Below, piece after piece: positions 6,124 through 27,418 of a DNA stretch of 40,111 nt. This stretch comes from an uncultured Gammaproteobacteria bacterium. GTDB lineage: Bacteria > Patescibacteriota > Microgenomatia > JAMCZE01. Within the stretch, counting starts at the first letter, position 1; every line of letters starts with the position of its first letter. Where the stretch lies: contig CAZNUP010000002.1 in assembly GCA_964576435.1 (NCBI GenBank), forward strand, positions 1 to 40,111. Direction: 5' to 3'. The translations under genes and the position numbers were made by a program. The notes under the pieces are model-generated. The model made no database searches. It was not told the origin of the DNA and saw nothing but the letters and a program-made list of their open reading frames with translations.

Positions 6124-7032
6124 TTAATCTCCAAGTGCCCCGCGAATTCCTAGAAGAAAATCCTTAACTCCCTGTTTTTGCATAGGTCTTCCGGTTTTTA
6201 AAAGCCTAAAGGCTTCTCTCAAAACTGCGATTTTTGTACGAAGTGGGGCATAACGCATTGCAAAAATTAGACGATTTCTTGTTGTCATGTAATCCGAAAA
6301 AGGAGAGCCAATGCCTCCTGTTCTTGAGACTTTGTGATAAATACCAGTTAAACCGTCATAGTAGAGTTTGAAACCGGCTTTTTTTACTTTTTCTTGGAAG
6401 TCGTTATCGTCGTAATAGGCAAAAAGTCCTTCATCCCAGAAAATGCCTTTGTCGTAGATTTTTCTACTTACTAAGACACAAGAACTACTTACGAATTCTG
6501 TTTCTTCTACCAAATCATATTTACCGGTATCTACATCATCAATTCCTCTATGGTGTGAATTGATATTCTTCCAGTCAAAAGAACCCCCGGCGTACCAAAT
6601 TACATTTCCTTTATCACTTGGTTTGTATTTTTCCTTTTGATATTCAAAACCGGGTGCAAAGTAAAGCTTTGGTGAAACCATGCCAATATTTGGCTCAGAT
6701 TCAATGGTTTTAACAAGATCTAAAAGAAGATTTTTGTCTTTTATTTCAGTGTCGTTATTTATAAGTAGGATATAGTCAGCTCCCCAAGCGAGTCCTGCTT
6801 TGGCTGAATCGTTATATCCTCCTGCGGAACCTCTGTTTTCCTTCTTCTCAATGAGATTTGTAGTTGGAAATTGCTTTTTGATGGCGTCAGCCGAGCCATC
6901 AGAAGAGCCGCCATCGGTGACAAAAACTTGGACTTCTAGCCCCTTTGTATCTAGTTTTTTGAGGCTTGACAGAAAGTCTAGGGTGTCTTTTTTTCCATTC
7001 CAATTAACTGTGCAGATTGCGATTTTGATCAT
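6124..7032 (-). CDS. Family 2 glycosyltransferase
   Basis: IAICTVNWNGKKDT...DGGSSDGS...LLINNDT...YYDDNDF are GT2 signatures. Confidence 0.9.
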   Translation of the reverse strand: MIKIAICTVNWNGKKDTLDFLSSLKKLDTKGLEVQVFVTDGGSSDGSADAIKKQFPTTNLIEKKENRGSAGGYNDSAKAGLAWGADYILLINNDTEIKDKNLLLDLVKTIESEPNIGMVSPKLYFAPGFEYQKEKYKPSDKGNVIWYAGGSFDWKNINSHHRGIDDVDTGKYDLVEETEFVSSSCVLVSRKIYDKGIFWDEGLFAYYDDNDFQEKVKKAGFKLYYDGLTGIYHKVSRTGGIGSPFSDYMTTRNRLIFAMRYAPLRTKIAVLREAFRLLKTGRPMQKQGVKDFLLGIRGALGD

Positions 7033-7053
7033 TAGCTAAATTTTAGCAGATGT

Positions 7054-7416
7054 TTATTCATCAGTTTGAATTAAGGCGTCGTGTAAGGGGTTAAAAGTTT
7101 GTTGACGAGCATTTTCAAGGGCTTTATTCCACTTATATCTGATTCTACCGTCTTCATCGGTATAGGGGATGGCTTTGACTCTAGTGTGCATTACAACCGA
7201 GGGATGTAACTCTCCATTGTGAATAGGGCAAAACAACATATGTTGTGGGGTTAGGATTAGAATTGGGTGTCTTTTTCTTCCCGGAATTTCTATATTGCAT
7301 ATTTTAGAAACAGATAAGGCGCCCATTCCTTCCTGAGTTAGTAGGTACTTTTTACATAGGGCAAATGTATGTAATTCCTCGGCGGTGTAAGTCTGTTTCT
7401 CCCTTTTCCTGCCCAT
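7054..7416 (-). CDS. Hypothetical protein (120 aa)
   Basis: ORF only, on the same strand as and immediately upstream of the GT2 gene. Confidence 0.5.
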   Translation of the reverse strand: MGRKREKQTYTAEELHTFALCKKYLLTQEGMGALSVSKICNIEIPGRKRHPILILTPQHMLFCPIHNGELHPSVVMHTRVKAIPYTDEDGRIRYKWNKALENARQQTFNPLHDALIQTDE

Positions 7417-7464
7417 ATGGTCGCATTCTACCTTTCTTGACGGGCAATTTCCAAGTGAACATAG

Positions 7465-7493
7465 TTGTCTTTAGGATATCTACATGATAAAAT
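7465..7493 (+). promoter_or_regulatory. Candidate sigma70-type promoter upstream of rpsA
   Basis: TTGTCT (7465-7470), a 17-nt spacer, then TAAAAT (7488-7493) preceded by TGa (extended -10). Confidence 0.35.
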
Positions 7494-7528
7494 ATTGACA
7501 AATACAAAGGGAAGGAAGTGTTTCATGA

Positions 7529-8689
7529 TTGAAAAAGTCAAAAACTGGATCAGCAAAATCTTCGGAAAGTAAGGCTTCTAAAACAGCCGAAGTTTCTCCT
7601 GTAAAGAAAAGCAGTAAAACCCAAGTCGAGCCAACAACCATGGAAGCGCTTCTTGCTGATGTTGGGTACGGCTTTAAAGGCTTCAAAAAAGGGCAGTTTG
7701 TCTCTGGAACAGTATCTTCAATTTCTGGGAAAGAAGTTTTAATTGACTTTGGAGGTAAAACTGAAGGGGTTGTTGGAGAAAAAGAATGGGAAGATGTTAA
7801 AGGGTTTGTTTCAAAACTTAAACCCGGCGACAAGATTGAAGCCATGGTTATTTCTTCAGAAAACGATCGCGGGCAAATGGTTGTTTCAATTAGGTCAGCT
7901 GGAAACAAATTTAGATGGCAAAGAGTCAAGGAACTCCTTAAGAGTGGGGATGCTGTTAATGTTCGAGGAATGGAAGTGAACAAAGGTGGAATCTTGGTCG
8001 ATTATGATGGTCTAAAAGGATTTATGCCAGGATCACAACTTGCTCCTGAACATGCTTCTGACATGGCCAAGCTTTTGAATAGAATAATTCCAGCTAAAGT
8101 CATTGAAGTTGATCAACAGCAAAATAGACTAATTTTCTCTGAAAAGGCAGTCACTGGGGCTGCTGATCTATCTAAAAAGCTTGATGAAGTCAAATCGAAA
8201 GTTAATATTGGAGAAAAATATAAAGGAAAGATATCAGCAATTATGCCGTACGGCGTATTTGTGAACTTAGAAGCTGGCCCTGATGGACTAGTCCACATTT
8301 CCGAAATATCATGGGAAAAAGTTGATAATTTAGCGGGAATTTTTGAAGTCGGGGAGCAAGTTGATGTTTTGGTTCTTGGAATCAATGAAAATGACGGGAA
8401 GTTGAATCTTTCCATTAAACAACTTCTACCTGATCCATGGGCAGATCTTGCTAAGAAATACTCAACTGATAAGGAAGTTAAAGGAATTGTTACTAGAGTT
8501 TCTGCATATGGAGTGTTTGTGAAACTGGAAGATGGGGTTGAGGGTTTGATTCATATTTCCAAAGTTCCAGCGGGAACTGAATATGAAGTCGGAGAAACTG
8601 TAAAATGCACAATTGAGTCGGTTGATGTTAAATCACATAGAATCTCATTAATTCCAGTTGTGACCCATAAGCCCATTGGGTATAAATAG
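7529..8689 (+). CDS. rpsA: 30S ribosomal protein S1 (four S1 domains)
   Basis: Repeated S1 OB-fold signatures are present (GxxVxGxV...GVFVxLxxGxxGLxHISE). The ORF opens at TTG 7529 with a Lys/Ser-rich extension. ATG 7640 (MEALLADVG...) is an alternative start. Confidence 0.9.
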   Translation: MKKSKTGSAKSSESKASKTAEVSPVKKSSKTQVEPTTMEALLADVGYGFKGFKKGQFVSGTVSSISGKEVLIDFGGKTEGVVGEKEWEDVKGFVSKLKPGDKIEAMVISSENDRGQMVVSIRSAGNKFRWQRVKELLKSGDAVNVRGMEVNKGGILVDYDGLKGFMPGSQLAPEHASDMAKLLNRIIPAKVIEVDQQQNRLIFSEKAVTGAADLSKKLDEVKSKVNIGEKYKGKISAIMPYGVFVNLEAGPDGLVHISEISWEKVDNLAGIFEVGEQVDVLVLGINENDGKLNLSIKQLLPDPWADLAKKYSTDKEVKGIVTRVSAYGVFVKLEDGVEGLIHISKVPAGTEYEVGETVKCTIESVDVKSHRISLIPVVTHKPIGYK

Positions 8690-8692
8690 AAT

Positions 8693-9028
8693 ATGGTACG
8701 TCATAATTCTGTAGTTTTGGCGCAAGTAGTTCCCGAACCAAAGGTTCCTGTTGTATTTCCCAGAAACGATATGGGGTTTATGATACTTGTGAGTGCTGCT
8801 CACGAAGTTCGTGTTAACTTAGGCGATATTTTGGCAAACAGAAAAGGATGGAATCAACAGTTGGATAATGAACTTCGAAGTTTAGGATTTGGTGGTCCGG
8901 AGAGTGTAACTAAGCAAGATTTGCAAGGCGTTGTAACCAAATTATGGGGAGACGAAATATGGCAACAAGCAAGTAAAAAACCTGAGTTAACCATGTCCCA
9001 TGTGATCAAATACCCTGAGTTTCGTTAA
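8693..9028 (+). CDS. Hypothetical protein (111 aa)
   Basis: ORF that begins 4 nt after the rpsA stop. No family recognised. Confidence 0.5.
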   Translation: MVRHNSVVLAQVVPEPKVPVVFPRNDMGFMILVSAAHEVRVNLGDILANRKGWNQQLDNELRSLGFGGPESVTKQDLQGVVTKLWGDEIWQQASKKPELTMSHVIKYPEFR

Positions 9029-9073
9029 GAGTATTTTCAGATTATATTACCTTTTTAGGTTATAATTTAGTTC

Positions 9074-10132
9074 ATGAAACTTTCAGAAAGTTTTGCACTT
9101 AAACTCTTTGATAAACACGGTATTTTGCATCCTAAAGTTTCTCCCACTAATGGAAAAGTAATTGTTAAGGCAGATATAGCATTGGGAGGGAAAAAAAAGG
9201 CAGGACTTGTACAGATTTGTGACTTTGAAGATGCTTCTAAGATTTCCAAAAAAATGGGAGTGCCAACTGCAATTTATGAATTTATTCCTCACGACGAGGA
9301 ATTTTTTGTGGCCTTAAAAGCAGTTCGGGAAGGAGTTGAAATTTATTATTCTCATGTAGGGGGAGTTGATGTTGAACAAAATTGGGATAAAGTTCAAAAA
9401 ATACTGGTAGCAACTGATTCGATTCTAGAAGAAAAACAACTTTTCGATTTAGTTTTGGAGAAGAGTGTGAGAGAGTGGATTGTACGTTTGTATGAGTTTT
9501 TTCAATTGGAAGATGCTACGTATTTAGAAATTAATCCATTTACTGTTATTAACAAACAGGTGATGCCACTTGGGGTAGTGCTAGTTTTAGATGATGCGGC
9601 TTCCTTTAGGCATCCTGATTGGCCAGATATTGTTGATAATTCAGGTTCAGATCGAGAAAAAAAAGTCCGAGAGGTTGATGAACAAATTAAGGGTTCAGTT
9701 AAGCTGGTTGAGGTTCCTGGAGGTGGAACTACTGCATTGATGGCTGGGGGTGGAGGAGCAGCTTTATTTCTTTGCGACGCGATACTGGAACAAAATCTAA
9801 AACTGGCTGATTACGCGGAATTTTCAGGTAATCCTCCTGATTATGCGGTTTATGAACTGACAAAACAAGTTTTAAAATTGCCTGGAATTAAAAATCTGGT
9901 TATTGGAAGTGGGATTGCAAATTTCACACCGGTTATTGGTAACTTCATGGGGATAATTCAGGCATTTAAAGAGTCTCCGGAAGTTAAAAATTTGAAGATC
10001 GTGATTCGGAGGTGTGGCCCTGAGGAAGATATGGCAATTGCTTTGATGAAAGATTTTGCAAAACAATCAGGGCTAGATATTCAGGTTTTTGGGAGGGAAA
10101 TAGGAATGACACAGATTGTTAAGAAATTATGA
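9074..10132 (+). CDS. ATP-grasp subunit of an ATP-citrate lyase / citryl-CoA synthetase-type enzyme (SucC-like beta subunit)
   Basis: SucC/ACL-beta layout: LEINPF, LVLDDAASFRHPDW, ALMAGGGGAALF, ADYAEFSGNPP. The ACL-type GSGIANFTPVIGNFMGIIQAF (compare ACL GGSIANFTNVAATFKGIV) replaces the SCS-type GGIVRCD. Confidence 0.8.
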   Translation: MKLSESFALKLFDKHGILHPKVSPTNGKVIVKADIALGGKKKAGLVQICDFEDASKISKKMGVPTAIYEFIPHDEEFFVALKAVREGVEIYYSHVGGVDVEQNWDKVQKILVATDSILEEKQLFDLVLEKSVREWIVRLYEFFQLEDATYLEINPFTVINKQVMPLGVVLVLDDAASFRHPDWPDIVDNSGSDREKKVREVDEQIKGSVKLVEVPGGGTTALMAGGGGAALFLCDAILEQNLKLADYAEFSGNPPDYAVYELTKQVLKLPGIKNLVIGSGIANFTPVIGNFMGIIQAFKESPEVKNLKIVIRRCGPEEDMAIALMKDFAKQSGLDIQVFGREIGMTQIVKKL

Positions 10133-10767
10133 ACAAATACCAAGCTGTGATTCCTCTTGGAGGGGGACGAAATAAAAATGGAAGCTTAACAGAAATGTCA
10201 TGTGAGAGGCTTGATAAAGCAGTTGCTGTATTTGAAAGTGGCATAGCGGATCTGATTTTTTCGTTGGGCGGGCATAAAAGCACATATAGACCAAATGCAA
10301 TTGAGTTTAGCCAACCTGGTGGAGTCTTACGTGCTAAATATCTTAGTACAAAAGGCGTTCCAATGGAAAAAATTATCATTTTGAAAATGGAGTGCCGGGA
10401 TACAATTGGAGAAGCGTTGGCAGTTCGTGAATATCTTCAATCCAGTGAAATCAAAAAACTGCTTGTAGTGACGTCGGAATTACATCTTCCTCGGGCATTG
10501 TTTTTGTTTAGAAGAATTCTTGGGACGGGTTTTGAGATTTATGCAGAAAGTGTTCCTTCAAATGGGTTGTTGATTGGGGATGAGGAAAAAGAATATTTGG
10601 AATTAGCTAAAAGATTTTTTTTGGTTAAACCAGCTTATATAAGGGAAAAAAGTTTTGATGAATGGTTTCTTGGGAACCAGGACTACTATTTTAATTTATT
10701 GTCAATTCATGATAAATATCATTCCCTTGGGAAGGAATCTCAAGCTTATTTTGCGGTCAAAGAGTAA
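10129..10767 (+). CDS. YdcF/DUF218 family protein
   Basis: IPLGGG...LIFSLGG...LLVVTSELHLPRALFLF matches the pattern of DUF218 (SanA/YdcF-like) proteins. The start overlaps the upstream stop (ATGA). Confidence 0.7.
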   Translation: MNKYQAVIPLGGGRNKNGSLTEMSCERLDKAVAVFESGIADLIFSLGGHKSTYRPNAIEFSQPGGVLRAKYLSTKGVPMEKIIILKMECRDTIGEALAVREYLQSSEIKKLLVVTSELHLPRALFLFRRILGTGFEIYAESVPSNGLLIGDEEKEYLELAKRFFLVKPAYIREKSFDEWFLGNQDYYFNLLSIHDKYHSLGKESQAYFAVKE

Positions 10768-10776
10768 GTGTGTGAA

Positions 10777-11001
10777 TTATTTTCCGCTTGTAAACTCATC
10801 TACCAACTTGATGGCTTGTTCTAGTATTTCTGGCGTGGGTTTAAAGTCCTTTGGATGGTCGAGGATCCAAGGGTTAGCTGATAAGTCTAGCCGCACACTT
10901 GGGAGTTCGCCAGTGGCAATTTTAGCTAAATCGCCCTCTTCTAGCCTTCTTAGGCTATTTTGATCAATTGCGAATACTAGTGCTAAAACTTCTTTTGGCA
11001 T
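10777..11001 (-). CDS. Hypothetical protein (74 aa)
   Basis: ORF only. It lies on the opposite strand within an otherwise + strand run. Confidence 0.4.
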   Translation of the reverse strand: MPKEVLALVFAIDQNSLRRLEEGDLAKIATGELPSVRLDLSANPWILDHPKDFKPTPEILEQAIKLVDEFTSGK

Positions 11002-11087
11002 GTCAGTGATTTTAGTATTGTGAGAGTGTACTGTCTGTGATTTAAATCATAAACAGAAGTTTAGAAGGAAGGTGGTAAAATTACCAA

Positions 11088-12026
11088 GTGGAAAGGTTTC
11101 GGACAATTTTAATTGGTGGAGATTCTGCAAAGAAGGCTGCTGGTCGAATTGGAGAGTTTGACTATTTGATTGAGCAACCGCTTTCTGTCGTGGCCTTTGT
11201 TAACCCGGCATCTTCAGCACATTTTCAACTTGTGAAATCGGGAGAAAAATGGAGTGATGTACCAATTTTCGACTCGCTTTCTCGAGCACTTGAAAATGAT
11301 AAGGACGTGAACAGTGTTGGAATTCATTTCAATGCAAAGCATGTGCTTCATTGGGTGAAAGAAACTGTTAAACATCCACAAATTAAAACAATTGTGATTT
11401 TAGCGGAAGATGTGCCAGAAAAGGATGCACGGGAGATTGTGGCCTTGCAGAAAAAACATAATATCAACATCCTGGGCCCTTCATCACTTGGGATAATTGT
11501 TGCTGGTCAGGGTAGGATTGGAGAACTGTGTGGGGAGTTCAAAAATCTGCAGCTTTGTAAATTGGATCAAATGGGATGTGTGGGTGTTGTTACTAAGTCG
11601 GGGACTATTGCTGGAGAAATGGCTTGGGTTGTTTCGCAAAATTCTCCTGGAGTGTCGACGATTGTGCAGATTGGAGGAGACACATTTCCAGCAACTGATT
11701 TTGTGCATTGGCTTGATTATTTTTCGAGAAATAAAAATACAAAAGTTGTGATTTTGGCAGGAGAAGCGGGGGGAGACTTAGAAGAAAGAGCAGCGGAGTG
11801 GTTGTCTAAAAATAAGGTAAATTATAAAGTACTGGCGGCAATTTCCGGAAAATTTATGGAAAAAATGCCAAAGGGGCAGAAGTTTGGACATGCTGGGGCT
11901 AAGCAAGAAGAGTCAGGCTATGGATCAGCAGCTAATAAAGTCAAAGTTTTGCGAGAAGCAGGGGTGGAAGTGGTAGAATTTGAGGAACTGGGGAAGAGAC
12001 TCAAGTCAATTAATTATGAAAAATAA
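11088..12026 (+). CDS. CoA-binding/CoA-ligase alpha subunit of an ATP-citrate lyase / citryl-CoA synthetase-type enzyme (SucD-like)
   Basis: GPSSLGII, VGVVTKSGTIAGE and QIGGDTFPATDF (ACL-type GGDRYPGSTF). The phosphohistidine loop is KFGHAGA (ACL QFGHAGA). GTG start is preceded by AGGAAGGTGG. Confidence 0.85.
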   Translation: MERFRTILIGGDSAKKAAGRIGEFDYLIEQPLSVVAFVNPASSAHFQLVKSGEKWSDVPIFDSLSRALENDKDVNSVGIHFNAKHVLHWVKETVKHPQIKTIVILAEDVPEKDAREIVALQKKHNINILGPSSLGIIVAGQGRIGELCGEFKNLQLCKLDQMGCVGVVTKSGTIAGEMAWVVSQNSPGVSTIVQIGGDTFPATDFVHWLDYFSRNKNTKVVILAGEAGGDLEERAAEWLSKNKVNYKVLAAISGKFMEKMPKGQKFGHAGAKQEESGYGSAANKVKVLREAGVEVVEFEELGKRLKSINYEK

Positions 12027-12738
12027 TCTCATCTATTTTAAAAAAGGGGTAAGGCTGGCAAGAGCAAACCTTAGATTATTAGCAATCTCGCTTGGTCTTA
12101 TTCTGCTTGTGAAACTTATTTTTGTGCTTGGCAATGCTGATGTGGGGATTTCATATTTAATCCTGTTACCGATTTCAGTTGTGAGTGTGTTTGTGATGTT
12201 TGGCTATGATTTTGCAAGATATGCTTTTTTGAACCAAGCTGAGTTAGGAAAACGAGCAACTAGCCAGGAGATTAGGGCTAAAACATGGGAAACAACAAAA
12301 AGATTAATTTTGCCAATTTTTGCGTTTTTAGGGCTAATGGCCGTGGGCGGGGTGGCAGTTGGGGTGCTTGTGGCAATAGGAGGGGTTGGAGTTCGAGAAT
12401 TGTTAATGAGCACAGGAAGATATTGGGGTGTGTTTTTCGCTTTTGTCGCAGGAATTTTCTGGTTTGTGCCGACGTTTTTTGTAGTGGAAAAAAGGAAGAT
12501 GAGAGAGGCGATTCCACTGGCACTTCGCTTTTTCTTTGCGCATGTTGATTTTGGAGTTTTATTGTTGGGGATTAACTTTTTGATTGCGGGCTTAGCGTAT
12601 CTGTTGGCGAGTGTGAGTTTTGCACTCGATGCTAATGGCTTTTTGCCGGTAATGTTGACTGCGTGTTTGATGTTTGGTGTTGATTCGAGCGTAGTGTGTT
12701 ACTACCAAGATAAAAAATCCCATGAAAACATTGCCTAA
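12016..12738 (+). CDS. Hypothetical polytopic membrane protein
   Basis: About 6 hydrophobic helices. The ORF is open from 11980, but ATG 12016 (MKNNLIYF) is the more likely start. It overlaps the upstream stop and the relic ccl start at 12722. Confidence 0.65.
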   Translation: MKNNLIYFKKGVRLARANLRLLAISLGLILLVKLIFVLGNADVGISYLILLPISVVSVFVMFGYDFARYAFLNQAELGKRATSQEIRAKTWETTKRLILPIFAFLGLMAVGGVAVGVLVAIGGVGVRELLMSTGRYWGVFFAFVAGIFWFVPTFFVVEKRKMREAIPLALRFFFAHVDFGVLLLGINFLIAGLAYLLASVSFALDANGFLPVMLTACLMFGVDSSVVCYYQDKKSHENIA

Positions 12739-12762
12739 ACCCGTTGAACCGCTTGTGGTGAC
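12722..12762 (+). repeat. Direct repeat copy A: relic duplicate of the 5' end of the citryl-CoA lyase gene (encodes MKTLPKPVEPLVVT, then I-stop)
   Basis: 41 nt, 35/41 identical to 13455-13495, with the last 28 nt 27/28 identical. Reading from ATG 12722 it gives 15 codons ending at TGA 12767-12769, which overlaps the NYN gene ATG 12766 (ATGA). Confidence 0.85.
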
Positions 12763-12765
12763 TAT

Positions 12766-13395
12766 ATGAATACGTTTATTTTTATCGATGCTTCGAATCT
12801 TTTTTATGGGGGAGAGAAAAGTTTGGGCTGGAAGGTCGATTATGAGAAGTTTGCCAATTATTTAAAAGACAAATATCGTGCTCAGGAGATATTTTATTTT
12901 GGAGGCGTAGAGACCCATGGTTTTCCATACGATTATGTTAAATCTGAAACTGTCCCAATTTCAAAACTTGCCAAATATCTCGAAGATTTAGCTAAAAAGG
13001 AAGGGAAAAAATTAAACGAGGCTCAGCTCTTTCTCTTATCAAGACACGTTCAACGAGTTCATTTTTATCGAAAATTGGAAGAGTTTGGTTATAAGTTGTT
13101 TTTAAAACCAGTTAAGACATATACTCAGCCAGATGGGCAAACCGAGCGTAAGGCCAATTGTGATGTGGAGATGGCCTTTTATTTAATGAAGGAAAAAGAT
13201 AATTTTGGGAGAGTGTTGGTTCTTTCAGGAGACGGAGATTTTTTACCGGTTTTGAAGCATCTCAGAAGTGTTGGAAAAGAAGTTTTGATTTTGGCTCGGG
13301 GAGCGCGGACGGCAAAGGAAATAAAGCAGTTCGCTGGTAGTAATTTTAGAGATTTTGTTAAACTTGAGCGAGAAATTAAATATACGGGAAAATAG
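12766..13395 (+). CDS. NYN-domain (LabA/DUF88-like, PIN-fold) predicted ribonuclease
   Basis: IFIDASNLFYGG at the N-terminus, KANCDVEMAFYLM, and VLVLSGDGDFLPVLKHLRSVGKEVLILA match the NYN acidic-residue pattern. Confidence 0.8.
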   Translation: MNTFIFIDASNLFYGGEKSLGWKVDYEKFANYLKDKYRAQEIFYFGGVETHGFPYDYVKSETVPISKLAKYLEDLAKKEGKKLNEAQLFLLSRHVQRVHFYRKLEEFGYKLFLKPVKTYTQPDGQTERKANCDVEMAFYLMKEKDNFGRVLVLSGDGDFLPVLKHLRSVGKEVLILARGARTAKEIKQFAGSNFRDFVKLEREIKYTGK

Positions 13396-13404
13396 GCAAA
13401 AAAA

Positions 13405-13431
13405 GAAGCGGACATACGAAATATCCGCTTC
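13405..13431 (-). terminator. Hairpin with flanking A-tract on + strand (reads as an intrinsic terminator on the - strand)
   Basis: GAAGCGGA (13405-13412) pairs with TCCGCTTC (13424-13431). Seven A residues precede it on + (a T-run after it on -), and there is no T-run after it on +. Confidence 0.4.
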
Positions 13432-13454
13432 ATGTTTAGTGAGGATATTATACC

Positions 13455-13495
13455 ATGAAGAGTCTACCTAAACCAGTTGAACCGCTTGTGGTGAC
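13455..13495 (+). repeat. Direct repeat copy B: functional 5' end of the citryl-CoA lyase gene (MKSLPKPVEPLVVT...)
   Basis: See copy A. This copy is in frame with the full-length gene. Confidence 0.85.
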
Positions 13496-14246
13496 CACGG
13501 TCTTTGATGAAAAAGCCGGGGAGGAGAGATACAAAGGTGTGCCTGTCTCTGAACTTCTCAAGGGGCAACTTGAGGAAACGGTGTGGCTTTTGTGGACAGG
13601 CAAAAAGCCGTCGAAGGTTCAGGCTGATCTAGCGCGGATGATTCTCATCATGGTCGCAGATCACGGTCCGGAAGTTGCTGGGGCATATGCAACGATTTTG
13701 GCAACGTCAGCGGGGCTTTATATGCCGCAAGCAGTTGCCTCAGGAGTGCAAATGATTGGGCCGAGGTTTGGGGGAGCTGCTGGTATGGCGGCAGAGGGAT
13801 TTAAGTTCGCGGTTGAAAACGGGTTCACAGTGGAACAGTTTGAAACGTGGGCGAAAGAAACTAAAGGGTGGCGCACATATCCTGGAATTGGACACAAAAT
13901 TTTCTCACGGGCAAAACCAGATAAAAGAGTTCAAGAGCTGGTCAAATTCGCTAAAGCAAACATCAAGCAGGCTAGAGGGCTAGAGGGTAAGCAGGTTAGC
14001 AGCACGCCACACTTAGATTTTGCTTTAAAACTCGAACAGGAAACTTTGAAAAAGAATGACAAATTGATTTTGAATATTGACGGGTGCATTGGTGCGGTGT
14101 TGATGGATGCCGGATTTCCACTTGAAGGCGTGGATGGGTTCTTTATTCTTTCAAGAACAATTGGTTTAATTGCTCACTTCATTGATCAAAAACAGAGGGG
14201 GACCGGCTTAATCAGGCTTCCGGAGGAATTAGTGCTCCACAAATAG
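13455..14246 (+). CDS. Citryl-CoA lyase / citrate-synthase-like C-terminal module of ATP-citrate lyase
   Basis: At 263 aa it is the size of stand-alone Ccl. GIGHKIFSRAKPDKRVQEL corresponds to the citrate synthase/ACL GHR(V)...PD.R motif, and DGCIGAVLMDAGF...LSRTIGLIAH matches the citrate-synthase small/large domain pattern. Confidence 0.8.
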   Translation: MKSLPKPVEPLVVTTVFDEKAGEERYKGVPVSELLKGQLEETVWLLWTGKKPSKVQADLARMILIMVADHGPEVAGAYATILATSAGLYMPQAVASGVQMIGPRFGGAAGMAAEGFKFAVENGFTVEQFETWAKETKGWRTYPGIGHKIFSRAKPDKRVQELVKFAKANIKQARGLEGKQVSSTPHLDFALKLEQETLKKNDKLILNIDGCIGAVLMDAGFPLEGVDGFFILSRTIGLIAHFIDQKQRGTGLIRLPEELVLHK

Positions 14247-14474
14247 ACCTCTAATTCAGTTCAAACTAGGTTACAAGCAACATTCGGAAGCGGGCGGTAG
14301 AATCCCCAAAAGAAGTGAGGGTATTTTATGGCTGAACAAAAAATTGAACTTTCCATCAACAGGAAAAACTGGATTCATATGGGAGGATAATGCTCTTAAG
14401 GATTTTGATGGTGAAGAAGTTTTAAGATTAGAAATTTGTAATCCTAAATAAGAAGGTATTTTTACCATTAGGTT

Positions 14475-16016
14475 TTACTCAAATATTTCAATTGTATTTG
14501 TGGGTTTTTTAACAATAGGGAGGTCAACTATTGTTGTTCCTTGTTGAGGAACTTTAAAATAAGTATTAACTTCAACAAAGGGAGTAGTTCCATTTTGGGT
14601 CCACTTCATAAGTTTAATTATAAATTTGTCTCCACCTGGTACCTTACAGTAGAAGTAATGATTATCTGTGGGGATTATTGTCGGGGTTTTAATTTGATTG
14701 CAGTTTATGAAGGTTAAATTTTTTGCTAGATCTGGTCTACCTATTGCATAGTTTCCTTGAGAAAGTTTTTCAAAGGTAAAATTTATCCCATTTTTATCAT
14801 TTGTCGAATTTGTTTCGGCTAAAAATGTGTTTGAATTGCCTGTTTTTTTAGCCAATAAAATGGTGGTTCCTTGCAGCGAGGTTTCATTTTTCTCATTGTT
14901 TTTGACGGCATTTAAATTTGAGTCAATAAAAATGCTTCCTTCAACTTTGCCACTTGGTGGAGGAGTTGGACTTGGGACCTTTGTTTGATCAAGGAATTTG
15001 CTATCTGCCATGTTCCAATGTGTAAAGAGATAGTTTCCTTGTTCTGGATGAGTGTGGAAGTAGTCGTCTTTGTTGCAATCAAGTCTGTCGTAGTCCTCAT
15101 CTGCACTACAAACATGTTGTGTTTCTTGTCCATTTGGATTGTCCTTATAGCACATAATGTCGTTCCCATCGAAACAATGCCAATAGCCAGTTGAATGGGG
15201 AGCTGATAGTTGCACTGCTCCAATTGTGTGTGATGCTTCATGGACTATAACTCCTGGAGTGTCATATTTTTTACTGCTCCAACAGGCAACGACTGCGTAA
15301 TCTGGTCCATTATTATTTTTATTTTTGTTAAGCTTTCTATCGTCTGGATTTATTGTCCCTTGGCCACAATAGGGGAAAGTTGAACTGTCTAGAAAGACAA
15401 TATACTTTCTACTTCTTTTATTGAAGCCCTTTTCTTCTAAGGCTGCCATAATTGTTCCAATATTTTCGTCCTCTCCAGGATTTATGACGACATTTGTAAT
15501 TGTTGGTTCGCAGTTTGCTTCTTGAGTTAAACGAAGACCACGATATCCGCCAGTTTGGGCAGAACTTTTGACGAATATGGCATTAGCTTTTTTAAGCCAA
15601 CCTCTAAAGTTTTTGATCTGTTCGGGATTGTAGCGATCGGCTCTATTTGAGGGCCTAACATACAAGGTTTCGAATCTTTCGCCAGATTGACCATTTCCAA
15701 TACAGGGAATTCCTTCTGATTCAAGAAGTGCTTCCGCTTCAACAGTGCCTTTAGTTTGGTATTCGCTCATAGGGTCAGGGCCATGGGTACAAAAAGGAGT
15801 GCCGTCTGATCTTGTCTTGTCTTTAACTTTATAGAGACTGGGGCAGGATTTTTCGTCAATTTCTAGTCCAAGTTTTGTCATTTGTTCTTTAGATAGAAGA
15901 GGTTTTGGTTCTGAGGCTTGTGATTTTAGGGTGGTAACGGTTTTTAGATTGGTGCCAATTGCAAAAGTCAAAATGAGAACTAAGGCAAGAATTGAAAGGC
16001 CAAAAAAGGACTTCAT
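14475..16016 (-). CDS. Secreted zinc metalloprotease-like protein (HExxH)
   Basis: The N-terminal signal/anchor is MKSFFGLSILALVLILTFAIG. VIVHEASHTIG provides an HExxH motif, followed by a Cys/His-rich stretch and then a beta-rich C-terminal domain. The ORF is open to 16037, but ATG 16016 is preferred. Confidence 0.7.
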   Translation of the reverse strand: MKSFFGLSILALVLILTFAIGTNLKTVTTLKSQASEPKPLLSKEQMTKLGLEIDEKSCPSLYKVKDKTRSDGTPFCTHGPDPMSEYQTKGTVEAEALLESEGIPCIGNGQSGERFETLYVRPSNRADRYNPEQIKNFRGWLKKANAIFVKSSAQTGGYRGLRLTQEANCEPTITNVVINPGEDENIGTIMAALEEKGFNKRSRKYIVFLDSSTFPYCGQGTINPDDRKLNKNKNNNGPDYAVVACWSSKKYDTPGVIVHEASHTIGAVQLSAPHSTGYWHCFDGNDIMCYKDNPNGQETQHVCSADEDYDRLDCNKDDYFHTHPEQGNYLFTHWNMADSKFLDQTKVPSPTPPPSGKVEGSIFIDSNLNAVKNNEKNETSLQGTTILLAKKTGNSNTFLAETNSTNDKNGINFTFEKLSQGNYAIGRPDLAKNLTFINCNQIKTPTIIPTDNHYFYCKVPGGDKFIIKLMKWTQNGTTPFVEVNTYFKVPQQGTTIVDLPIVKKPTNTIEIFE

Positions 16017-16037
16017 AATATGATAGTATTTCACCAC

Positions 16038-17345
16038 ATGGCAAGATTTTCTTCAATATTTATATGTCAGCAGTGTGGATATCAAAGTCCAGCCTCACTT
16101 GGAAAGTGCCCAAATTGTGGATCGTGGAATAGTTTTTCTGAGGAAGTTATACAAACCGGGAAAAAAGAGGCAGGTGGCAAACAACACACTACTATTAATA
16201 GTGGTGATGCCAAGCCGGTCAAACTTTCTGAAGTCGCTGAGGCTAAAACCACTCGAATTCCTACTGGAATGGGGGAACTTGATCTGGTTTTAGGAGGAGG
16301 AATTGTTCCTGGGATGGCAGTTTTACTATCTGGAGAGCCAGGAGTTGGTAAATCAACACTTCTTTTAGAGCTTGCTAAGAAAATTCCGGGAGTGGTTTTA
16401 TATGTAGCTGGTGAGGAATCAGCAGCCCAAATTAAAATTAGGTCAACAAGACTCGGAATTAAGGCAGACAACATTGTAGTTTTGGAATCAACTGATGTTG
16501 ACTCAATTGTTTCGACAATTAGTGACAAGTTGAGTTTGGTGATTGTGGATTCAATCCAAACCTTGACCACATCGGATTTATCCGGAACTGCTGGATCAGT
16601 TGGACAGGTTCGCGAATCAGCAGCCCGACTAATTTCTGCAACAAAGTCACTAGGGATTCCGGTTTTTATTGTTGGGCATGTAACTAAGGAAGGAACAATT
16701 GCGGGACCTAAAGTTTTGGAACACGCAGTTGATACTATTATTAATGTAGAAGGTGAGAGATATACGTCACTTCGAATAGTTCGGACTAGTAAGAACCGGT
16801 TTGGGCCAACTGACGAAGTGGGGATTTTTGAAATGAGTGATTCTGGGCTTAAGGAACTTAAGGATTATAGTGGGTATACAAATGAGGAGGCTGATAAGAA
16901 CAAGCCCGGGTCATGTTTAACAATTACAATGGAAGGGACGAGACCAGTTTTAGTTGAAGTGCAGGCTCTAGTTACTTCAACGCCACTTCCAATGCCAAGG
17001 AGAGTTGCGTCGGGCGTGGACTATAACAGACTACAAACTATCATTGCAATTTTACAGAAACGACTATCTATACCATTATATAAGGAGGATGTGTATGTGT
17101 CTGTTTCTGGAGGGCTCAAGATTTCAGAGCCTGCTGCCGATCTAGCTATTGCCTTAGCAATTCTTTCGAGTTTTAAAGATAAAACGTTAACAAATGGAAC
17201 TGCTGCAGTTGGAGAATTAGATCTTTTGGGGAATGTTAGAAGAGTTAATTCTTTAGAGAGAAGAATTAAAGAAGCAAAGAGAATGGGGCTTAAAAATGTG
17301 CTGTCATTTGAGAATTTAAAAAATCTCCAGGGTTTTAAGATCTAA
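16038..17345 (+). CDS. radA: DNA repair protein RadA
   Basis: Zn finger CQQCGY...CPNCGSWNS, Walker A GEPGVGKST, KNRFGPTDE motif and a Lon-like C-terminal domain. The ORF is open from 16020. Confidence 0.95.
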   Translation: MARFSSIFICQQCGYQSPASLGKCPNCGSWNSFSEEVIQTGKKEAGGKQHTTINSGDAKPVKLSEVAEAKTTRIPTGMGELDLVLGGGIVPGMAVLLSGEPGVGKSTLLLELAKKIPGVVLYVAGEESAAQIKIRSTRLGIKADNIVVLESTDVDSIVSTISDKLSLVIVDSIQTLTTSDLSGTAGSVGQVRESAARLISATKSLGIPVFIVGHVTKEGTIAGPKVLEHAVDTIINVEGERYTSLRIVRTSKNRFGPTDEVGIFEMSDSGLKELKDYSGYTNEEADKNKPGSCLTITMEGTRPVLVEVQALVTSTPLPMPRRVASGVDYNRLQTIIAILQKRLSIPLYKEDVYVSVSGGLKISEPAADLAIALAILSSFKDKTLTNGTAAVGELDLLGNVRRVNSLERRIKEAKRMGLKNVLSFENLKNLQGFKI

Positions 17346-23403: not shown

Positions 23404-24942
23404 ATGGCCAGACCCCTCAAAGTTCTATTTGTTTCTGCAGAAGTTGCACCATATTCCTCCGTTGGAGGACTATCTCAAGTTGCGTATTTCCTTTCGCTTG
23501 CTTTAATCAAAAAAGGAATTGATATCCGCATTTTTACTCCTAAATACGGAATCATCGACCAGAAAAAATATCCAATGACTGATGTTATTTCGGGGATGGG
23601 TGTGCCAACAGGGGAACCGGAAGGATCTGATAAACCAAGAGAACTTATTTCCAATGTCAAAATGCACAATGAAAAGAAAAAAACTGTGCCAACTGTTTAT
23701 TTTTTAGAAAACCAAGAATATTTTGAACAGAGAGCTAATGTTTATGGATATAACGATGATCACATTAGGTTTGCGCTCCTTTCAAGAGGAGCACTTGAGT
23801 TTGTTAGAATGGGGTATTTTGAACCGGATGTGATCCATGTTAACGATTGGCACACAGGATACCTTCTAGACTATCTACATCAAGCGAGAAAAGACATTCC
23901 AAGACTTAGGGATGTTGCTAGTTTACTTTCGATGCACAACCTTTATCAAGGAACATTTGATTTCAAAAATGCAAGTGAAATGGATTTTGATGATGGCAAA
24001 AGTGTGCTGCAGCCATTTTTCTCAGAAAGATTTATGAAGCAGAACCCACTTAAGAGGGCAATTATGTATTCAGACATTATGAATACAGTGTCTGAGACAT
24101 ATGCCCAGCAGATTTTGACTGATGAATACGGGAATGGACTACAAAATCTTTTGAAGGAACTTAGGGGAAAACTATTCGGGGTTTTAAATGGAATTGATTA
24201 TAACGATTTTAATCCTCAATCTGATCCAATTATTAAAGCTGGGTTTAGTTCAAACAATTTGAAACCTAGAATTCAAGACAAAATGGATCTTGTTAAGCAG
24301 TTTGGACTGGAAAAAGGGGAAGAGAGACCGCTTGTGGTTTTTTGGGGAAGGTTTGACGATCAAAAAGGAGTTGGACTAATTTGCGAAACAATTAAGTTTC
24401 TTTTAGATGAACTTGATATTAATTTCTTAGCTCTTGGACCAACAAGTAATGATTATTACAGAGATTTCTTCACAAACTTAGAAAAAGAAAATCCAGGACG
24501 AGTTGGGTCACACATTATGTTTGATGCTCAACTTGCCAGGAAATTTATGGCGGGAGCGGATATTGCTCTTTTCCCATCAAAGTACGAGCCAGGAGGCATC
24601 ATGGCACTTGAGGCGATGCATTACGGACTGGTACCAGTTGTTAGAAACACTGGGGGACTTGCTGATTCGGTTGTTGATTATGACCCAGAAAAAAATGTCG
24701 GCACAGGATTTAAATTTAATAAATTTACGAGAGAGGGATTCTTAGTTGCTGTGGTCCGTGCTTTGGAAACATTTAGGAATAAGAAAGAGTGGGGGAAGAT
24801 TATGAGAAGGGGAATGGAAAGAGATTTTTCTTGGAGCAAAACTGCCGAGCAATATATTGATCTTTACAATCGGGCTGTTGAAATTAGAACTGAGGCAAAC
24901 TCAGATAATCCTCCAAGGGCGTTTAGACAGGAATTTAGTTAA
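23404..24942 (+). CDS. glgA: Glycogen/starch synthase (GT5)
   Basis: KVLFVSAEVAPYSSVGGLSQV at the N-terminus, HVNDWHTG, and FPSKYEPGGIMALEAMHYG at the C-terminus. Confidence 0.9.
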   Translation: MARPLKVLFVSAEVAPYSSVGGLSQVAYFLSLALIKKGIDIRIFTPKYGIIDQKKYPMTDVISGMGVPTGEPEGSDKPRELISNVKMHNEKKKTVPTVYFLENQEYFEQRANVYGYNDDHIRFALLSRGALEFVRMGYFEPDVIHVNDWHTGYLLDYLHQARKDIPRLRDVASLLSMHNLYQGTFDFKNASEMDFDDGKSVLQPFFSERFMKQNPLKRAIMYSDIMNTVSETYAQQILTDEYGNGLQNLLKELRGKLFGVLNGIDYNDFNPQSDPIIKAGFSSNNLKPRIQDKMDLVKQFGLEKGEERPLVVFWGRFDDQKGVGLICETIKFLLDELDINFLALGPTSNDYYRDFFTNLEKENPGRVGSHIMFDAQLARKFMAGADIALFPSKYEPGGIMALEAMHYGLVPVVRNTGGLADSVVDYDPEKNVGTGFKFNKFTREGFLVAVVRALETFRNKKEWGKIMRRGMERDFSWSKTAEQYIDLYNRAVEIRTEANSDNPPRAFRQEFS

Positions 24943-25619
24943 CGTTTTTTTGGGTTGTATCCTAAATCTATCCTAGCGTTTTCGATATCTAAAAATCTTC
25001 CGGGATTATCAGAAACTGCAAAATAGACTCCAAATTTTACATTTGCTTCAATTGATTTTTGAACAATATCTATAAGGTCATCTTCAAAAAGTTCTACTTT
25101 ATCAAGTTCTGGATCATGCTTTGTATGAGCGGTAGTGTGGCCGATTCTGAGATTGATTGAAGAGATATTAAATAAATCTGAATATGTTCTTCCAATTATC
25201 TCACCAACAACTTTAGAAGCTCCATAGAATTCGTCTGGACGTACAGGATCAAGAGTTGTCAAAAAATCTTGACCTTCAATTGTTTTTGGATAGTTTGGAT
25301 ATTTTCCTATGGTGTGAGTAGAACTAGCAAAGACAACTTTTGGAATAGAGAATTCTTTTGCCATTTCGTAAATATTTCTTGTGCCTTCAATATTATTTTT
25401 TGAAACATTTTCCCAAGAAGCAAAAGGGTAGGGGTCGGCGGCAAAATGAATAATGGAGTCAATTTGTGGGAGCTTGTTAAAGAATTCTCTTAGTCCAACA
25501 ATATCTGAAATGTCTGCCTCGATTTTATCAAGGCCAATCACTTCGTATTTGTTTTTAAGTCCTTCACTTAGAATTTGGCCAAGAATTCCATTTGCACCGG
25601 TAATAAGAACTTTTTTCAT
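24939..25619 (-). CDS. NAD(P)-dependent epimerase/dehydratase family (SDR) protein, short form
   Basis: Rossmann MKKVLITGANGILG and catalytic YGASK (YxxxK). Its stop overlaps the glgA stop inside GTTAAC. Confidence 0.75.
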   Translation of the reverse strand: MKKVLITGANGILGQILSEGLKNKYEVIGLDKIEADISDIVGLREFFNKLPQIDSIIHFAADPYPFASWENVSKNNIEGTRNIYEMAKEFSIPKVVFASSTHTIGKYPNYPKTIEGQDFLTTLDPVRPDEFYGASKVVGEIIGRTYSDLFNISSINLRIGHTTAHTKHDPELDKVELFEDDLIDIVQKSIEANVKFGVYFAVSDNPGRFLDIENARIDLGYNPKKR

Positions 25620-26332
25620 TTATAGGCAAGGATTAATATATCTCTGCCGTAGGGGTGTTCAGCGCTTAAGTGAAATGGTACATGCGCAATCACTTTAAAA
25701 CCTACTGAGGTAAGAATGTTGTCGAGTGATTGCTGAGAAAATTCGTGCACAGGTAAGATCATCTCTCTATTAGTGGTCAACTTATTAAACTCTTCCTCAG
25801 TAATTACTTCTTGGACTAATTCATTATTTTCGATGTGGTTTTTTTCAAATTGGTCTTTGTCTGATTTGGAATTGCTTGTAGTTAAGATGAAGAGCCCGCC
25901 ATTTTTCAGTGAATTGTAAATACTTTGGATCACGGCGACGACGGAAGCTGTTGGTATATGCTGAATTATATGACTTGAGAGTGCGGCATTTGCTTCATTG
26001 TTAATGGTAAGTTTTTCAGTAGGGATATTCAGGAATTCTACTTTATCTTGGATCCCAAATTGTGAGATGTATTCTTTGGCCCTTTGAATTCTAGCGGCGT
26101 CTGGTTCTATAGCTATTATTTTATTAAAAAGTCCACTAAATTCTGGAATCAATCTTCCCTGTCCGCAACCCGCATCAATGAAAAGTTGTCCACTTTTGAT
26201 AAATTTTTTGGCATAACTCAAGATTTCAGTCTCATCTTGAGCCCAGAACTGGTTTTCTTTTTCTGCTTTTTCAATCGCTTTTAATGTTGCTGCTTCAGTT
26301 GGGTCGGGGTAGGTGAAATTATTGTCTGACAT
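25616..26332 (-). CDS. Class I SAM-dependent methyltransferase
   Basis: Motif I is LFIDAGCGQGRL, with a post-I acidic residue and GGLFILT (motif III/IV-like). ATGA overlap with the downstream SDR gene. Confidence 0.8.
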   Translation of the reverse strand: MSDNNFTYPDPTEAATLKAIEKAEKENQFWAQDETEILSYAKKFIKSGQLFIDAGCGQGRLIPEFSGLFNKIIAIEPDAARIQRAKEYISQFGIQDKVEFLNIPTEKLTINNEANAALSSHIIQHIPTASVVAVIQSIYNSLKNGGLFILTTSNSKSDKDQFEKNHIENNELVQEVITEEEFNKLTTNREMILPVHEFSQQSLDNILTSVGFKVIAHVPFHLSAEHPYGRDILILAYK

Positions 26333-26359
26333 CGCTATATGATATCATAAATTTGTAAA

Positions 26360-27148
26360 ATGAATCTGATTCAATCACTTATTTTGTCAATTGTAGAAGG
26401 TGTTACTGAATTTTTACCTATCTCTTCGACGGGGCATTTACTTTTAACATCTGAAATTCTCGGTATTACTCAAACTGAATTTGTTAAAAGCTTTGAGGTA
26501 ATTATTCAACTGGGGGCAATACTTGCGGTTGTGGTGTTCTTTTTTCCTCAGATGAAGAAGATTTTGAAACTTTGGAAACCAGTGCTTTTTGCTTTTATTC
26601 CAACTGCAGTTGTAGGGCTTTTCCTTTATAAGATAATTAAAAGTATATTTTTTGAACAGATTTGGATCACTATATTTATGCTTTTTGCCGGAGGTGTCTT
26701 TATTCTTGTGTTTGAATATTTTTATAACAAAAGGCTAACTCGAAGTGAAAAGATGGATAAATCTTTGGAGATTAAAGATCTCAATTGGAAACAAGCGGGG
26801 ATTATTGGAGTTATTCAATCAATTTCTGTAGTTCCTGGAACATCAAGAGCACTGGTGTCCATTTATGGGGGCATTTTGACTGGACTATCTCGTGAACAAG
26901 CAGTGGAGTTTTCCTTTCTTCTTGCAGTTCCCACAATAGCGGCGGCTGCTGGACTAGATATGATTAAGAGCAGTTGGAGTTTTACTGGAAGTGAGTGGGT
27001 TAGTTTAGTTGTTGGATTTATGGGAGCATTTGTTTCCGCATTAATTGTGATTAAGTTTTTCCTTAAGTATTCTAAAAATCATAATTTTGTAGTGTTTGGA
27101 GTTTATAGAATTATTCTTGCTATCCTTTGCTTCTTCTTTCTTCTCTAG
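26360..27148 (+). CDS. uppP: Undecaprenyl-diphosphate phosphatase
   Basis: EGVTEFLPISSTGHL and PGTSRA motifs, with 7-8 TM helices. Confidence 0.9.
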   Translation: MNLIQSLILSIVEGVTEFLPISSTGHLLLTSEILGITQTEFVKSFEVIIQLGAILAVVVFFFPQMKKILKLWKPVLFAFIPTAVVGLFLYKIIKSIFFEQIWITIFMLFAGGVFILVFEYFYNKRLTRSEKMDKSLEIKDLNWKQAGIIGVIQSISVVPGTSRALVSIYGGILTGLSREQAVEFSFLLAVPTIAAAAGLDMIKSSWSFTGSEWVSLVVGFMGAFVSALIVIKFFLKYSKNHNFVVFGVYRIILAILCFFFLL

Positions 27149-27150
27149 AC

Positions 27151-27208
27151 AAGCGAAAGTCCCGAGCTTTAACCCGGGACCAAGGCGAGAGTTTCTCGAC
27201 TTTCGCTT
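27151..27208. terminator. GC-rich structured inverted repeat between convergent genes (probable terminator)
   Basis: An 11-bp outer stem pairs AAGCGAAAGTC (27151-27161) with GACTTTCGCTT (27198-27208). It encloses two small hairpins (CCCG...CGGG and CGAG-AGTTT-CTCG). There is no T-run immediately adjacent. Confidence 0.45.
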
Positions 27209-27217
27209 AAACCCTCT

Positions 27218-27418
27218 TTATTTCTTTTTTAATAAAGGAAGGCCTGTTCTTTTGGATTCAATTACTGTGTAACCAACTGGGACTTCTTCAAGACCGTTTG
27301 GTCCAACAGCTCCTGCAAACCAATAGATCACTTGAGTTTTTCCTGACCCTTTGAGATCAACCTTCTTTGTGTGAAGGTAGTAGGTTTTGCCTTTGGAGTT
27401 TTTGTGTGCGTATGCCAT
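27218..27418 (-). CDS. Conserved-looking small hypothetical protein (66 aa)
   Basis: ORF preceded by a strong SD (GGGGGTGA, 8 nt upstream of the ATG). The product is basic and beta-rich. Confidence 0.6.
   Translation of the reverse strand: MAYAHKNSKGKTYYLHTKKVDLKGSGKTQVIYWFAGAVGPNGLEEVPVGYTVIESKRTGLPLLKKK

Follow-up and report, generated by a model that had tools for sequence, protein, structure and literature searches.

We describe what is predicted to be a natural three-protein version of ATP-citrate lyase (ACL), an enzyme normally made of one or two proteins, encoded on a 40,111-nucleotide stretch of DNA from an uncultured bacterium (GenBank assembly GCA_964576435.1, contig CAZNUP010000002.1, positions 1-40,111, forward strand; this whole stretch is referred to below as the window). 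Our analysis suggests that three of its genes specify a functional ACL of the Chlorobium/Nitrospira type, the aclB gene of which was split by a secondary fission in the linker between its two modules, and that the resulting three-gene set has been inherited vertically next to rpsA within a Patescibacteria clade related to Gottesmanbacteria; we put the probability of this reading as a whole at about 0.7. The three open reading frames (ORFs), which had been delimited identically in an original prediction made from the letters of the window, are as follows:

9074-10132, forward strand: aclA (ORF1), 352 aa, the ATP-grasp and citrate-binding subunit of ATP-citrate lyase (from Pfam, 6HXJ_A and conserved residues)
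11088-12026, forward strand: aclB-N (ORF2), stand-alone, 312 aa, GTG start, the CoA-binding and phosphohistidine (CoA-ligase) half of AclB
13455-14246, forward strand: aclB-C or CCL (ORF3), stand-alone, 263 aa, the citryl-CoA lyase (CCL) module of AclB, of citrate-synthase fold

Identity and predicted activity of the three proteins

Each ORF was compared with all solved structures, and the ACL of Chlorobium limicola (6HXJ) scored best for all three. ORF1 matched AclA, 6HXJ_A, at 1.3e-62 (215 bits), as against 1.1e-16 (64 bits) for CcsA, a subunit of citryl-CoA synthetase (CCS; 6HXQ_B); ORF2 matched residues 10-314 of 6HXJ_B at 3.7e-78 (266 bits), as against 1.6e-23 (87 bits) for CcsB, 6HXQ_A; and ORF3 matched residues 350-594 of 6HXJ_B at 1.3e-60 and the isolated Chlorobium CCL module 6QCL at 1.8e-61 (208-211 bits), as against 3.1e-17 (66 bits) for the Hydrogenobacter CCL, 6HXP. 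Succinyl-CoA synthetases (SCS) and citrate synthases scored below CCS/CCL for ORF1 and ORF3; for ORF2 the best SucD chains (~88-124 bits, about 1e-25 to 1e-35) stood slightly above CcsB but far below the 266 bits obtained with ACL. Since each ORF scores best against 6HXJ, and ORF2 and ORF3 match successive segments of AclB, we assign the three as the parts of a split ACL, in which ORF2 and ORF3 correspond to the two halves of a single AclB. In the window these halves, CoA-ligase and CCL, are thus not on one chain; they are separate genes 1.4 kb apart.

The domain content points the same way: ORF1 carries the ACL-specific domains Citrate_bind (PF16114, 3e-39) and the ACL ATP-grasp domain (PF24948, Citrate_synth_N, 5e-24), both above their gathering scores; ORF2 carries Ligase_CoA and Succ_CoA_lig; and ORF3 carries the C-terminal domain of Citrate_synt (1.5e-27), with positions 160-355 of the 357 of the profile covered. 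The original prediction had left a choice between a split ACL and a CCS/CCL-type system, and on Pfam domains and structure scores the first was the right one.

The residues expected of an active enzyme are in place. ORF1 contains GSGIANFTPV, and in alignment with human ACL (3MWD_A) the motifs FSGNPP, IANFT and RRCGP are conserved at the positions of G309, N346, T348 and R379, which are reported to be citrate-binding residues (Sun et al. 2010). The ATP-grasp residues K32, E76, E152-x-N154-P155 (EINP) and D173 are invariant and common to ORF1 and E. coli SucC; the protein is short through missing surface loops, which are also missing from AclA of the related locus L004. ORF2 contains GGDTFPATDF and KFGHAGA, and across the phosphohistidine loop (FGHAGA) the sequence KFGHAGAK is identical to that of Chlorobium 6HXJ_B. 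ORF3 contains GHKIFSRAKPDKRVQEL, and its H147 (GIGHK) and D209 (NIDG) align to H491 and D543 of 6HXJ, which serve as diagnostic ACL active-site residues (PMC13147460); H147, D209, D69-H70, R158 and R234 do not vary among 15 aligned homologs. The motifs quoted in the original prediction are therefore all present, and the phosphohistidine and citrate-binding loops, the loss of which it had named as a possible refutation, are intact on alignment.

The ACL set is under strong purifying selection. Against the closest relative, L095, dN/dS is 0.063 for aclA, 0.090 for aclB-N and 0.054 for CCL, i.e. 0.05-0.09 for the three genes, values that are approximate since dS (1.4-2.5) is near saturation. Against L092, the non-synonymous divergence of the ACL genes, 0.16-0.26, is much like that of rpsA (0.17) and radA (0.26).

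From the solved ACL and CCS/CCL structures, AclA and AclB-N would form the synthetase module, in which ATP would phosphorylate the histidine of the FGHAGA loop, citrate at the IANFT/RR site would be activated, and citryl-CoA would be formed; the stand-alone CCL module, tetrameric in Chlorobium, would then cleave citryl-CoA to acetyl-CoA and oxaloacetate through its His/His/Asp triad. Hand-over to CCL could take place within a non-covalent complex or by way of free citryl-CoA, as in Hydrogenobacter. The likely role is the conversion of scavenged citrate to acetyl-CoA and oxaloacetate in an organism without a tricarboxylic acid (TCA) cycle; profile scans of the window proteins found no TCA gene beyond the ACL set within the 40 kb.

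It is conceivable, although we consider it rather unlikely, that the enzyme runs in the opposite direction as an ATP-conserving citrate synthase (acetyl-CoA + oxaloacetate + ADP + Pi to citrate + ATP), which would provide a fermentative symbiont with substrate-level phosphorylation. Such reverse operation of ACL has reportedly been described for Desulfobacter (Moeller et al. 1987), and the lack of other TCA genes in the window is compatible with it; moreover, the ACL reaction is near equilibrium, its standard free energy for cleavage being about -8 kJ/mol (PMC13147460). However, nothing pointed to an oxaloacetate supply or to a citrate sink; the closest of the fused relatives, those of Nitrospira, cleave citrate with ACL in gene clusters of the reductive TCA (rTCA) cycle; and nothing in the sequence itself tells the two flux directions apart.

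Origin of the split aclB

Stand-alone homologs of both halves recur in public data: ~25 for AclB-N (303-342 aa, 54-81% identity) and ~34 for CCL (236-276 aa, 60-85% identity). The whole split clade falls into one cluster (385 bits) of an exhaustive 50%-cluster library, in which the next match is a fused AclB of 610 aa at 203 bits. A scan of GTDB genomes returned, among its best 80 loci, almost nothing but Nitrospira, together with at least three split-clade genomes and, among the matches listed, no CCS/CCL or Chlorobi references, and the Chlorobium sequences used for comparison were taken from the PDB alignments. Among these loci the nearest relatives outside the clade are ordinary fused Nitrospira AclB proteins (46-50% identity, 621 aa), the genes of which adjoin aclA, aconitase and other rTCA genes.

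Chlorobium limicola and Nitrospira AclA/AclB (6HXJ and, for example, locus L017) have the same domains in the same order as the window proteins and share with them the catalytic His and Asp, the phosphohistidine loop and the citrate loop; the CCL module of Nitrospira is about 48-50% identical to that of the window. The differences lie in organization: AclB of Chlorobium/Nitrospira is a single chain of 610-620 aa, whereas that of the window is two polypeptides with the ~45-aa linker almost wholly deleted; AclA of the window is cut to 352 aa by loop deletions; and the Nitrospira acl genes lie in an rTCA cluster with aconitase, isocitrate dehydrogenase and pyruvate:ferredoxin oxidoreductase, whereas the window set adjoins rpsA in a genome of the candidate phyla radiation (CPR) and is parted by unrelated insertions. 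Human and other eukaryotic ACLY (6HXH, 6POE) has the same domain set and chemistry but is more distant (~118-124 bits) and, as one chain of 1100 aa, stands at the opposite extreme of gene organization.

Trees of CCL, AclB-N and the concatenated halves (distance-based neighbour-joining with bootstraps, on unlabelled representatives and with no labelled CCS/CCL sequences) place an ACL-type clade at 100% support, with the window's clade as sister to the Chlorobium/Nitrospira ACL. The split clade and a further split locus, L094, form a clade at 96-100%; this is sister to the fused Chlorobium/Nitrospira group at 39% in the CCL tree, 90% in the AclB-N tree and 68% in the concatenated tree; and all other fused and single-chain ACLs make up the other branch at 98-100% (98% AclB-N, 100% concatenated). 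The split clade is therefore flanked by fused forms on either side. The phylogenetic check proposed in the original prediction thus places both AclB halves with Chlorobium/Nitrospira-type ACL.

The linker carries a further trace of the event. The ~45-aa AclB linker aligns across both fused groups, and of it the window's clade retains only MK[SD]LPK-PVEP. The split aclB-N/CCL pair of L094 (Logan SRR22388125, 124-2087), sister to the window's clade, keeps the C-terminal half of the linker on its separate CCL and looks like an intermediate stage of fission. We consider it probable, judging from trees and linker together, that a fused aclB broke inside its inter-module linker and was trimmed afterwards; we do not put this higher, given that distance methods were used for the trees and that the clade stands beside the fused group as its sister and is not nested in it.

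That such fissions do happen in CPR bacteria is shown by a second case. A Roizmanbacteria locus (L008; GCA_024654535.1, 2224-6801) likewise has aclA (389 aa), aclB-N (309 aa) and CCL (266 aa) as separate genes, likewise with unrelated inserts, here ORFs of 100, 57 and 377 aa, between aclA and aclB-N. Its proteins are 28-37% identical to those of the window; both of its AclB halves match the same fused AclB (P0143, locus L097) best, and the split set nests inside a different fused group at 92-100% bootstrap. L008 thus descends from another fused AclB lineage than the window's set, and its placement within fused forms identifies it as a second, independent fission.

The standard scenario holds that AclB arose by fusion of CcsB and Ccl (10.1101/2022.10.25.513756), and the CPR set could instead be a relic that never underwent it, descending from an unfused intermediate between CCS/CCL and ACL, with the Chlorobium/Nitrospira and archaeal/eukaryote AclB lines having fused independently. 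The sister position of the split clade fits this idea, as does the stand-alone protein P0104, which in the CCL tree branches off before all ACL-type CCL modules. Fusion is also generally commoner than fission. We nevertheless regard such a relic as improbable: AclB would have had to fuse independently at least twice, each time at the same point and with a linker that can be aligned; the separate CCL of L094 has at its N terminus the Group-I-specific linker segment LPKLPK...EA.K..E; and Roizmanbacteria offer a clear case of fission.

The original prediction had likened the three genes to CcsA/CcsB and Ccl of Hydrogenobacter thermophilus (Aoshima et al. 2004, as reported in PMC13147460). The likeness holds for the layout, three separate polypeptides (6HXQ, 6HXP) with the same division of labour, and the layout is all that is common to the two. 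Membership of that family, to which a 2022 preprint assigns some sequences from CPR and DPANN annotated as SCS or citrate synthase (10.1101/2022.10.25.513756), is very unlikely. The top NCBIfam matches of ORF3 are indeed citryl-CoA lyase models, but NF004864 reaches 106 bits where its cut-off asks for 261, and the remaining PRK06224 models also stay below theirs; the 6HXQ/6HXP scores are 3-4 times lower than those of 6HXJ (64 vs 215, 87 vs 266 and 66 vs 211 bits); ORF1 carries the ACL-specific Citrate_bind and ATP-grasp domains; and the trees group both halves with Chlorobium/Nitrospira ACL. Hydrogenobacter CCS/CCL, in which free citryl-CoA passes from synthetase to lyase, is the best functional analogue for an untethered system, but it belongs to a different branch of the family, and the three-part state of the window appears secondarily derived from a fused ACL.

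We give equally little credence to the split being a decaying, broken aclB or an assembly artefact. Decay does occur: in Gottesmanbacteria contigs L001-L003 (6720-8990) aclA is frameshifted into pieces of 283 and 147 aa, aclB-N is cut at about residue 283, and just the last 17 aa of CCL are left. Artefacts occur as well: the apparent split ACLs of L006 and L007 (ENA ERZ25039588 and ERZ25039585; long-read assemblies of Nitrospirota-like rTCA clusters), where aconitase is also fragmented, are most likely frameshift errors, and errors of this kind could pass for split ACLs. In the window, however, the ORFs are complete with intact catalytic residues, dN/dS is 0.05-0.09, roughly 25-35 relatives from many samples have the same split, three independent assemblies have the same gene order, and the 1.4 kb with two full genes between the halves is no simple frameshift. 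AbiEii and YafQ/YoeB-type toxin genes lie downstream of the decaying set in L001-L003.

Least credible of all are an ordinary SucC/SucD pair and a truncated citrate synthase as chance neighbours: SCS alpha and beta and citrate synthase models appear among the NCBIfam matches, but, like every match there, far under their curated cut-offs (TIGR01016, beta, 64 vs 376 bits; TIGR01019, alpha, 164 vs 353; citrate synthase models at most 59 vs more than 400), the ACL structures score much higher, and ORF3 is without the N-terminal half of the citrate synthase fold.

Several points weigh against a functional ACL that arose by fission and is inherited vertically. Neighbour-joining trees of unlabelled representatives put the split clade beside the nearest fused group, as its sister, and not within it, with moderate support (39%, 68% and 90%); the near-saturation of dS makes the selection estimates approximate; an opposite-strand ORF and a 320-bp gap before aclB-N make co-transcription of the three genes doubtful in the window; and the decay in one Gottesmanbacteria lineage (L001) indicates that the set is dispensable in some relatives.

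Gene order, insertions and genomic setting

The ACL set has a conserved position, the order being glycosyltransferases, rpsA, aclA, aclB-N, CCL and radA. The S1 gene directly precedes aclA in L001, L004, L005, L092 and L096, and the synteny from rpsA to radA is the same in L004, L005, L092 and L096. L004 and L096 have the three ACL genes in a compact operon, each stop overlapping the next start, whereas other loci have extra genes: one of 305 aa at one junction and three of 101, 116 and 237 aa at the other in L092, an 82-aa ORF in L005, a 59-aa PDDEXK-like ORF in L095, and in the window a DUF218 gene and a reverse ORF at one junction and a transmembrane (TM) protein gene and a NYN gene at the other. 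The features of the window outside the ACL genes are:

7529-8689, forward strand: rpsA, ribosomal protein S1 with four S1 domains (Pfam S1, 1.4e-45)
8693-9028, forward strand: lineage-specific 111-aa ORF between rpsA and aclA (no Pfam or NCBIfam match; no homolog in related loci)
10129-10767, forward strand: DUF218/YdcF-like gene between aclA and aclB-N (Pfam DUF218, 5e-15)
10777-11001, reverse strand: 74-aa ORF, uncertain whether a real gene (no match in Pfam, NCBIfam, PADLOC or PHROGs)
12016-12738 (likely ATG) or from TTG 11980, forward strand: polytopic TM protein (no family match; weak PHROG of unknown function)
12717-12762, forward strand: relic CCL 5' end, left copy of a 46-nt direct repeat, with ATG 12722, MKTLPKPVEPLVVT, then I-stop
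12766-13395, forward strand: NYN-domain (LabA-like nuclease) gene (Pfam NYN, 1e-17; PADLOC NYN, 1.3e-10)
13405-13431: hairpin with an 11-bp stem in the NYN-CCL spacer, inside the inserted segment, T-run on the minus strand (terminator-like match)
13450-13495, forward strand: right copy of the 46-nt repeat, the functional CCL start
1-778: 3' end of 23S rRNA, cut at the window edge (Rfam)
854-970: 5S rRNA gene, after the 23S (Rfam)

The compact operons of L004 and L096, and inserts of which only the TM gene has a counterpart elsewhere, show that the interleaving is secondary: the split goes back to the ancestor of the clade, and the interleaved genes entered a compact operon later, in single lineages. 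In that of the window, DUF218 and the reverse ORF entered at one junction, and TM followed by NYN at the other, with the ACL frames undamaged. The YdcF/DUF218 gene, the opposite-strand ORF, the membrane protein gene and the NYN gene are all present as the original prediction had described them; its remark that this is not a tidy operon is correct for the window, where the interleaving is real, but not for the system, of which the interleaving is a derived state. The DUF218 ATG overlaps the aclA stop (ATGA), the position taken by the aclB-N start in compact operons. DUF218, NYN, the 74-aa reverse ORF and the 111-aa ORF have no counterpart in any related locus, and comparison of the inserted genes of the window, L092, L008 and L005 with PADLOC and PHROGs found no defence system or phage, the sole notable match being PADLOC NYN.

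The overlap between the TM gene and the aclB-N stop is 11 nt (from ATG 12016) or 47 nt (from TTG 11980), and the last 17 nt of the gene overlap the relic CCL start, so that both overlaps noticed earlier, including that with an ancestral CCL start, are real. Among the related loci its only homolog in the same position is the 237-aa protein of L092 (34% over 120 aa, E 2e-10), which likewise overlaps its own, real CCL start; neither the compact operons (L004, L096) nor the closest relative, L095, have the gene. The proposal that the membrane protein is a dedicated partner or transporter of the enzyme found no backing in this patchy occurrence, nor in Pfam, NCBIfam, PADLOC or PHROGs, where it has no family match.

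The NYN gene left a record of its arrival. The two 46-nt copies are identical at 39 of 46 positions (85%), with a local-alignment score of 32, where 300 control windows gave at most 13; the left copy also aligns with the CCL starts of L092 and L095, and its homology to CCL ends at 12762, four bases short of the NYN start codon. The relic CCL start to the left of NYN and the real start to the right show that NYN was inserted into the 5' end of CCL: ~687 nt entered after codon 14 of the ancestral gene, bringing NYN, the hairpin and a putative ribosome-binding site (GAGGA, 13441-13445, just 5' of CCL), and the 46-nt duplication kept CCL whole. One conceivable route to the duplication is a Campbell-type integration of a circle that carried the CCL start. 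An insertion of a single gene with so long a duplication that preserves the downstream gene is unusual, and no relic duplicated start rose above background at the other insertion points (aclA/DUF218/aclB-N of the window; L092, L005, L095 and L008). The order TM-NYN-CCL is reproduced in three independent Logan assemblies (SRR14271332, SRR14271335 and SRR14271336).

Transcription units could not be deduced, since a promoter and terminator scan of 7000-16500 gave counts no higher than the shuffled expectation. A perfect TATAAT lies at 9061-9066, 7 nt 5' of the aclA start codon, in front of which no clear Shine-Dalgarno motif is seen. The aclA transcript may be leaderless or have a very short leader, or the TATAAT may simply reflect AT-rich sequence. 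A scan with Rfam gave zero RNA family matches in or near the ACL region, the matches elsewhere being just the 23S 3' end, the 5S gene and two tRNAs. Upstream of the glycosyltransferase/rpsA/ACL region of L001 (127-627) and L005 (1-474) there are LAGLIDADG homing-endonuclease ORFs, which are consistent with intron-bearing rRNA genes nearby, as the 23S and 5S genes precede the same region in the window.

The host is supported as a member of the Patescibacteria, Microgenomates/Gottesmanbacteria-like, i.e. a reduced bacterium of CPR type, in keeping with the reduced organism that the original prediction had suspected. The named homologs of the window's RadA come from a Patescibacteria group bacterium (71%), Candidatus Microgenomates (63%) and Candidatus Gottesmanbacteria (57-58%), and one AclB-N homolog is named as coming from a Gottesmanbacteria metagenome-assembled genome (MAG). 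The window otherwise codes for housekeeping and glycan genes: S1, RadA, Rho, UppP, glycosyltransferases and glycogen enzymes. Three GTDB representatives with split ACL, L012-L014 (CAZRUW01, CAZXMM01 and CAZQWX01), are titled 'uncultured Gammaproteobacteria bacterium' at NCBI; these titles are probably wrong, as the order of rpsA, ACL and radA matches that of CPR loci.

Elsewhere in the window, a 520-aa, probably secreted protein is encoded between CCL and radA (14475-16037, reverse strand), with weak metallopeptidase M12-like and prealbumin-fold (SpaA/SdrD) matches and no counterpart in related loci. A glycogen-type cluster at 23404-30297 comprises a starch/glycogen synthase, a GH57 enzyme and a phosphorylase-like glycosyltransferase, with an epimerase, a methyltransferase and UppP/BacA. 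At 30440-35212, in a stretch with a G+C content of 0.43-0.49 as against ~0.37, lies a gene for a 1590-aa protein with an N-terminal MerR-type helix-turn-helix and a Peptidase_S74 (endosialidase chaperone) domain; near it (35343-35690, 37849-38370 and 38461-39261) are a treble-clef zinc-finger protein, a second MerR-like protein and a weak phage cement-protein match. This part of the window may be phage-derived or encode surface fibres.

Implications for ATP-citrate lyase and CPR bacteria

We found no description in the literature of a three-gene, ACL-derived system in CPR bacteria, nor, in the literature searched, of the Roizmanbacteria set. aclAB has been found to be enriched in Saccharimonadia MAGs (2025, PMC12577380), and a CPR survey credits a gltA/citrate synthase gene to CPR MAGs (PMC11608272). 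If our reading is right, the CcsB-Ccl type of fusion has been reversed at least twice in CPR bacteria. If the CPR sets were pre-fusion relics instead, they would supply the intermediate that is missing between the CCS/CCL pair and ACL, in a scenario that derives the citrate synthase of the Krebs cycle from a CCL-like ancestor.

The site of citryl-CoA cleavage in ACL, i.e. the C-terminal CCL module or the synthetase module, and the reason for tethering the two are still discussed for human ACLY, which is a drug target. An untethered, ACL-derived CCL with conserved His and Asp offers a ready system in which to ask whether tethering is needed and whether citryl-CoA travels freely; if such a CCL works on free citryl-CoA, it would serve as a natural experiment on whether citryl-CoA is truly cleaved in the C-terminal module of ACL.

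The locus also bears on genome dynamics: both junctions of a small operon have repeatedly taken in foreign genes, and in the case of the NYN insertion a 46-nt duplication preserved CCL. For the biology of CPR bacteria, our analysis points to a well-conserved enzyme of citrate, acetyl-CoA and oxaloacetate in organisms that are thought to lack a TCA cycle.

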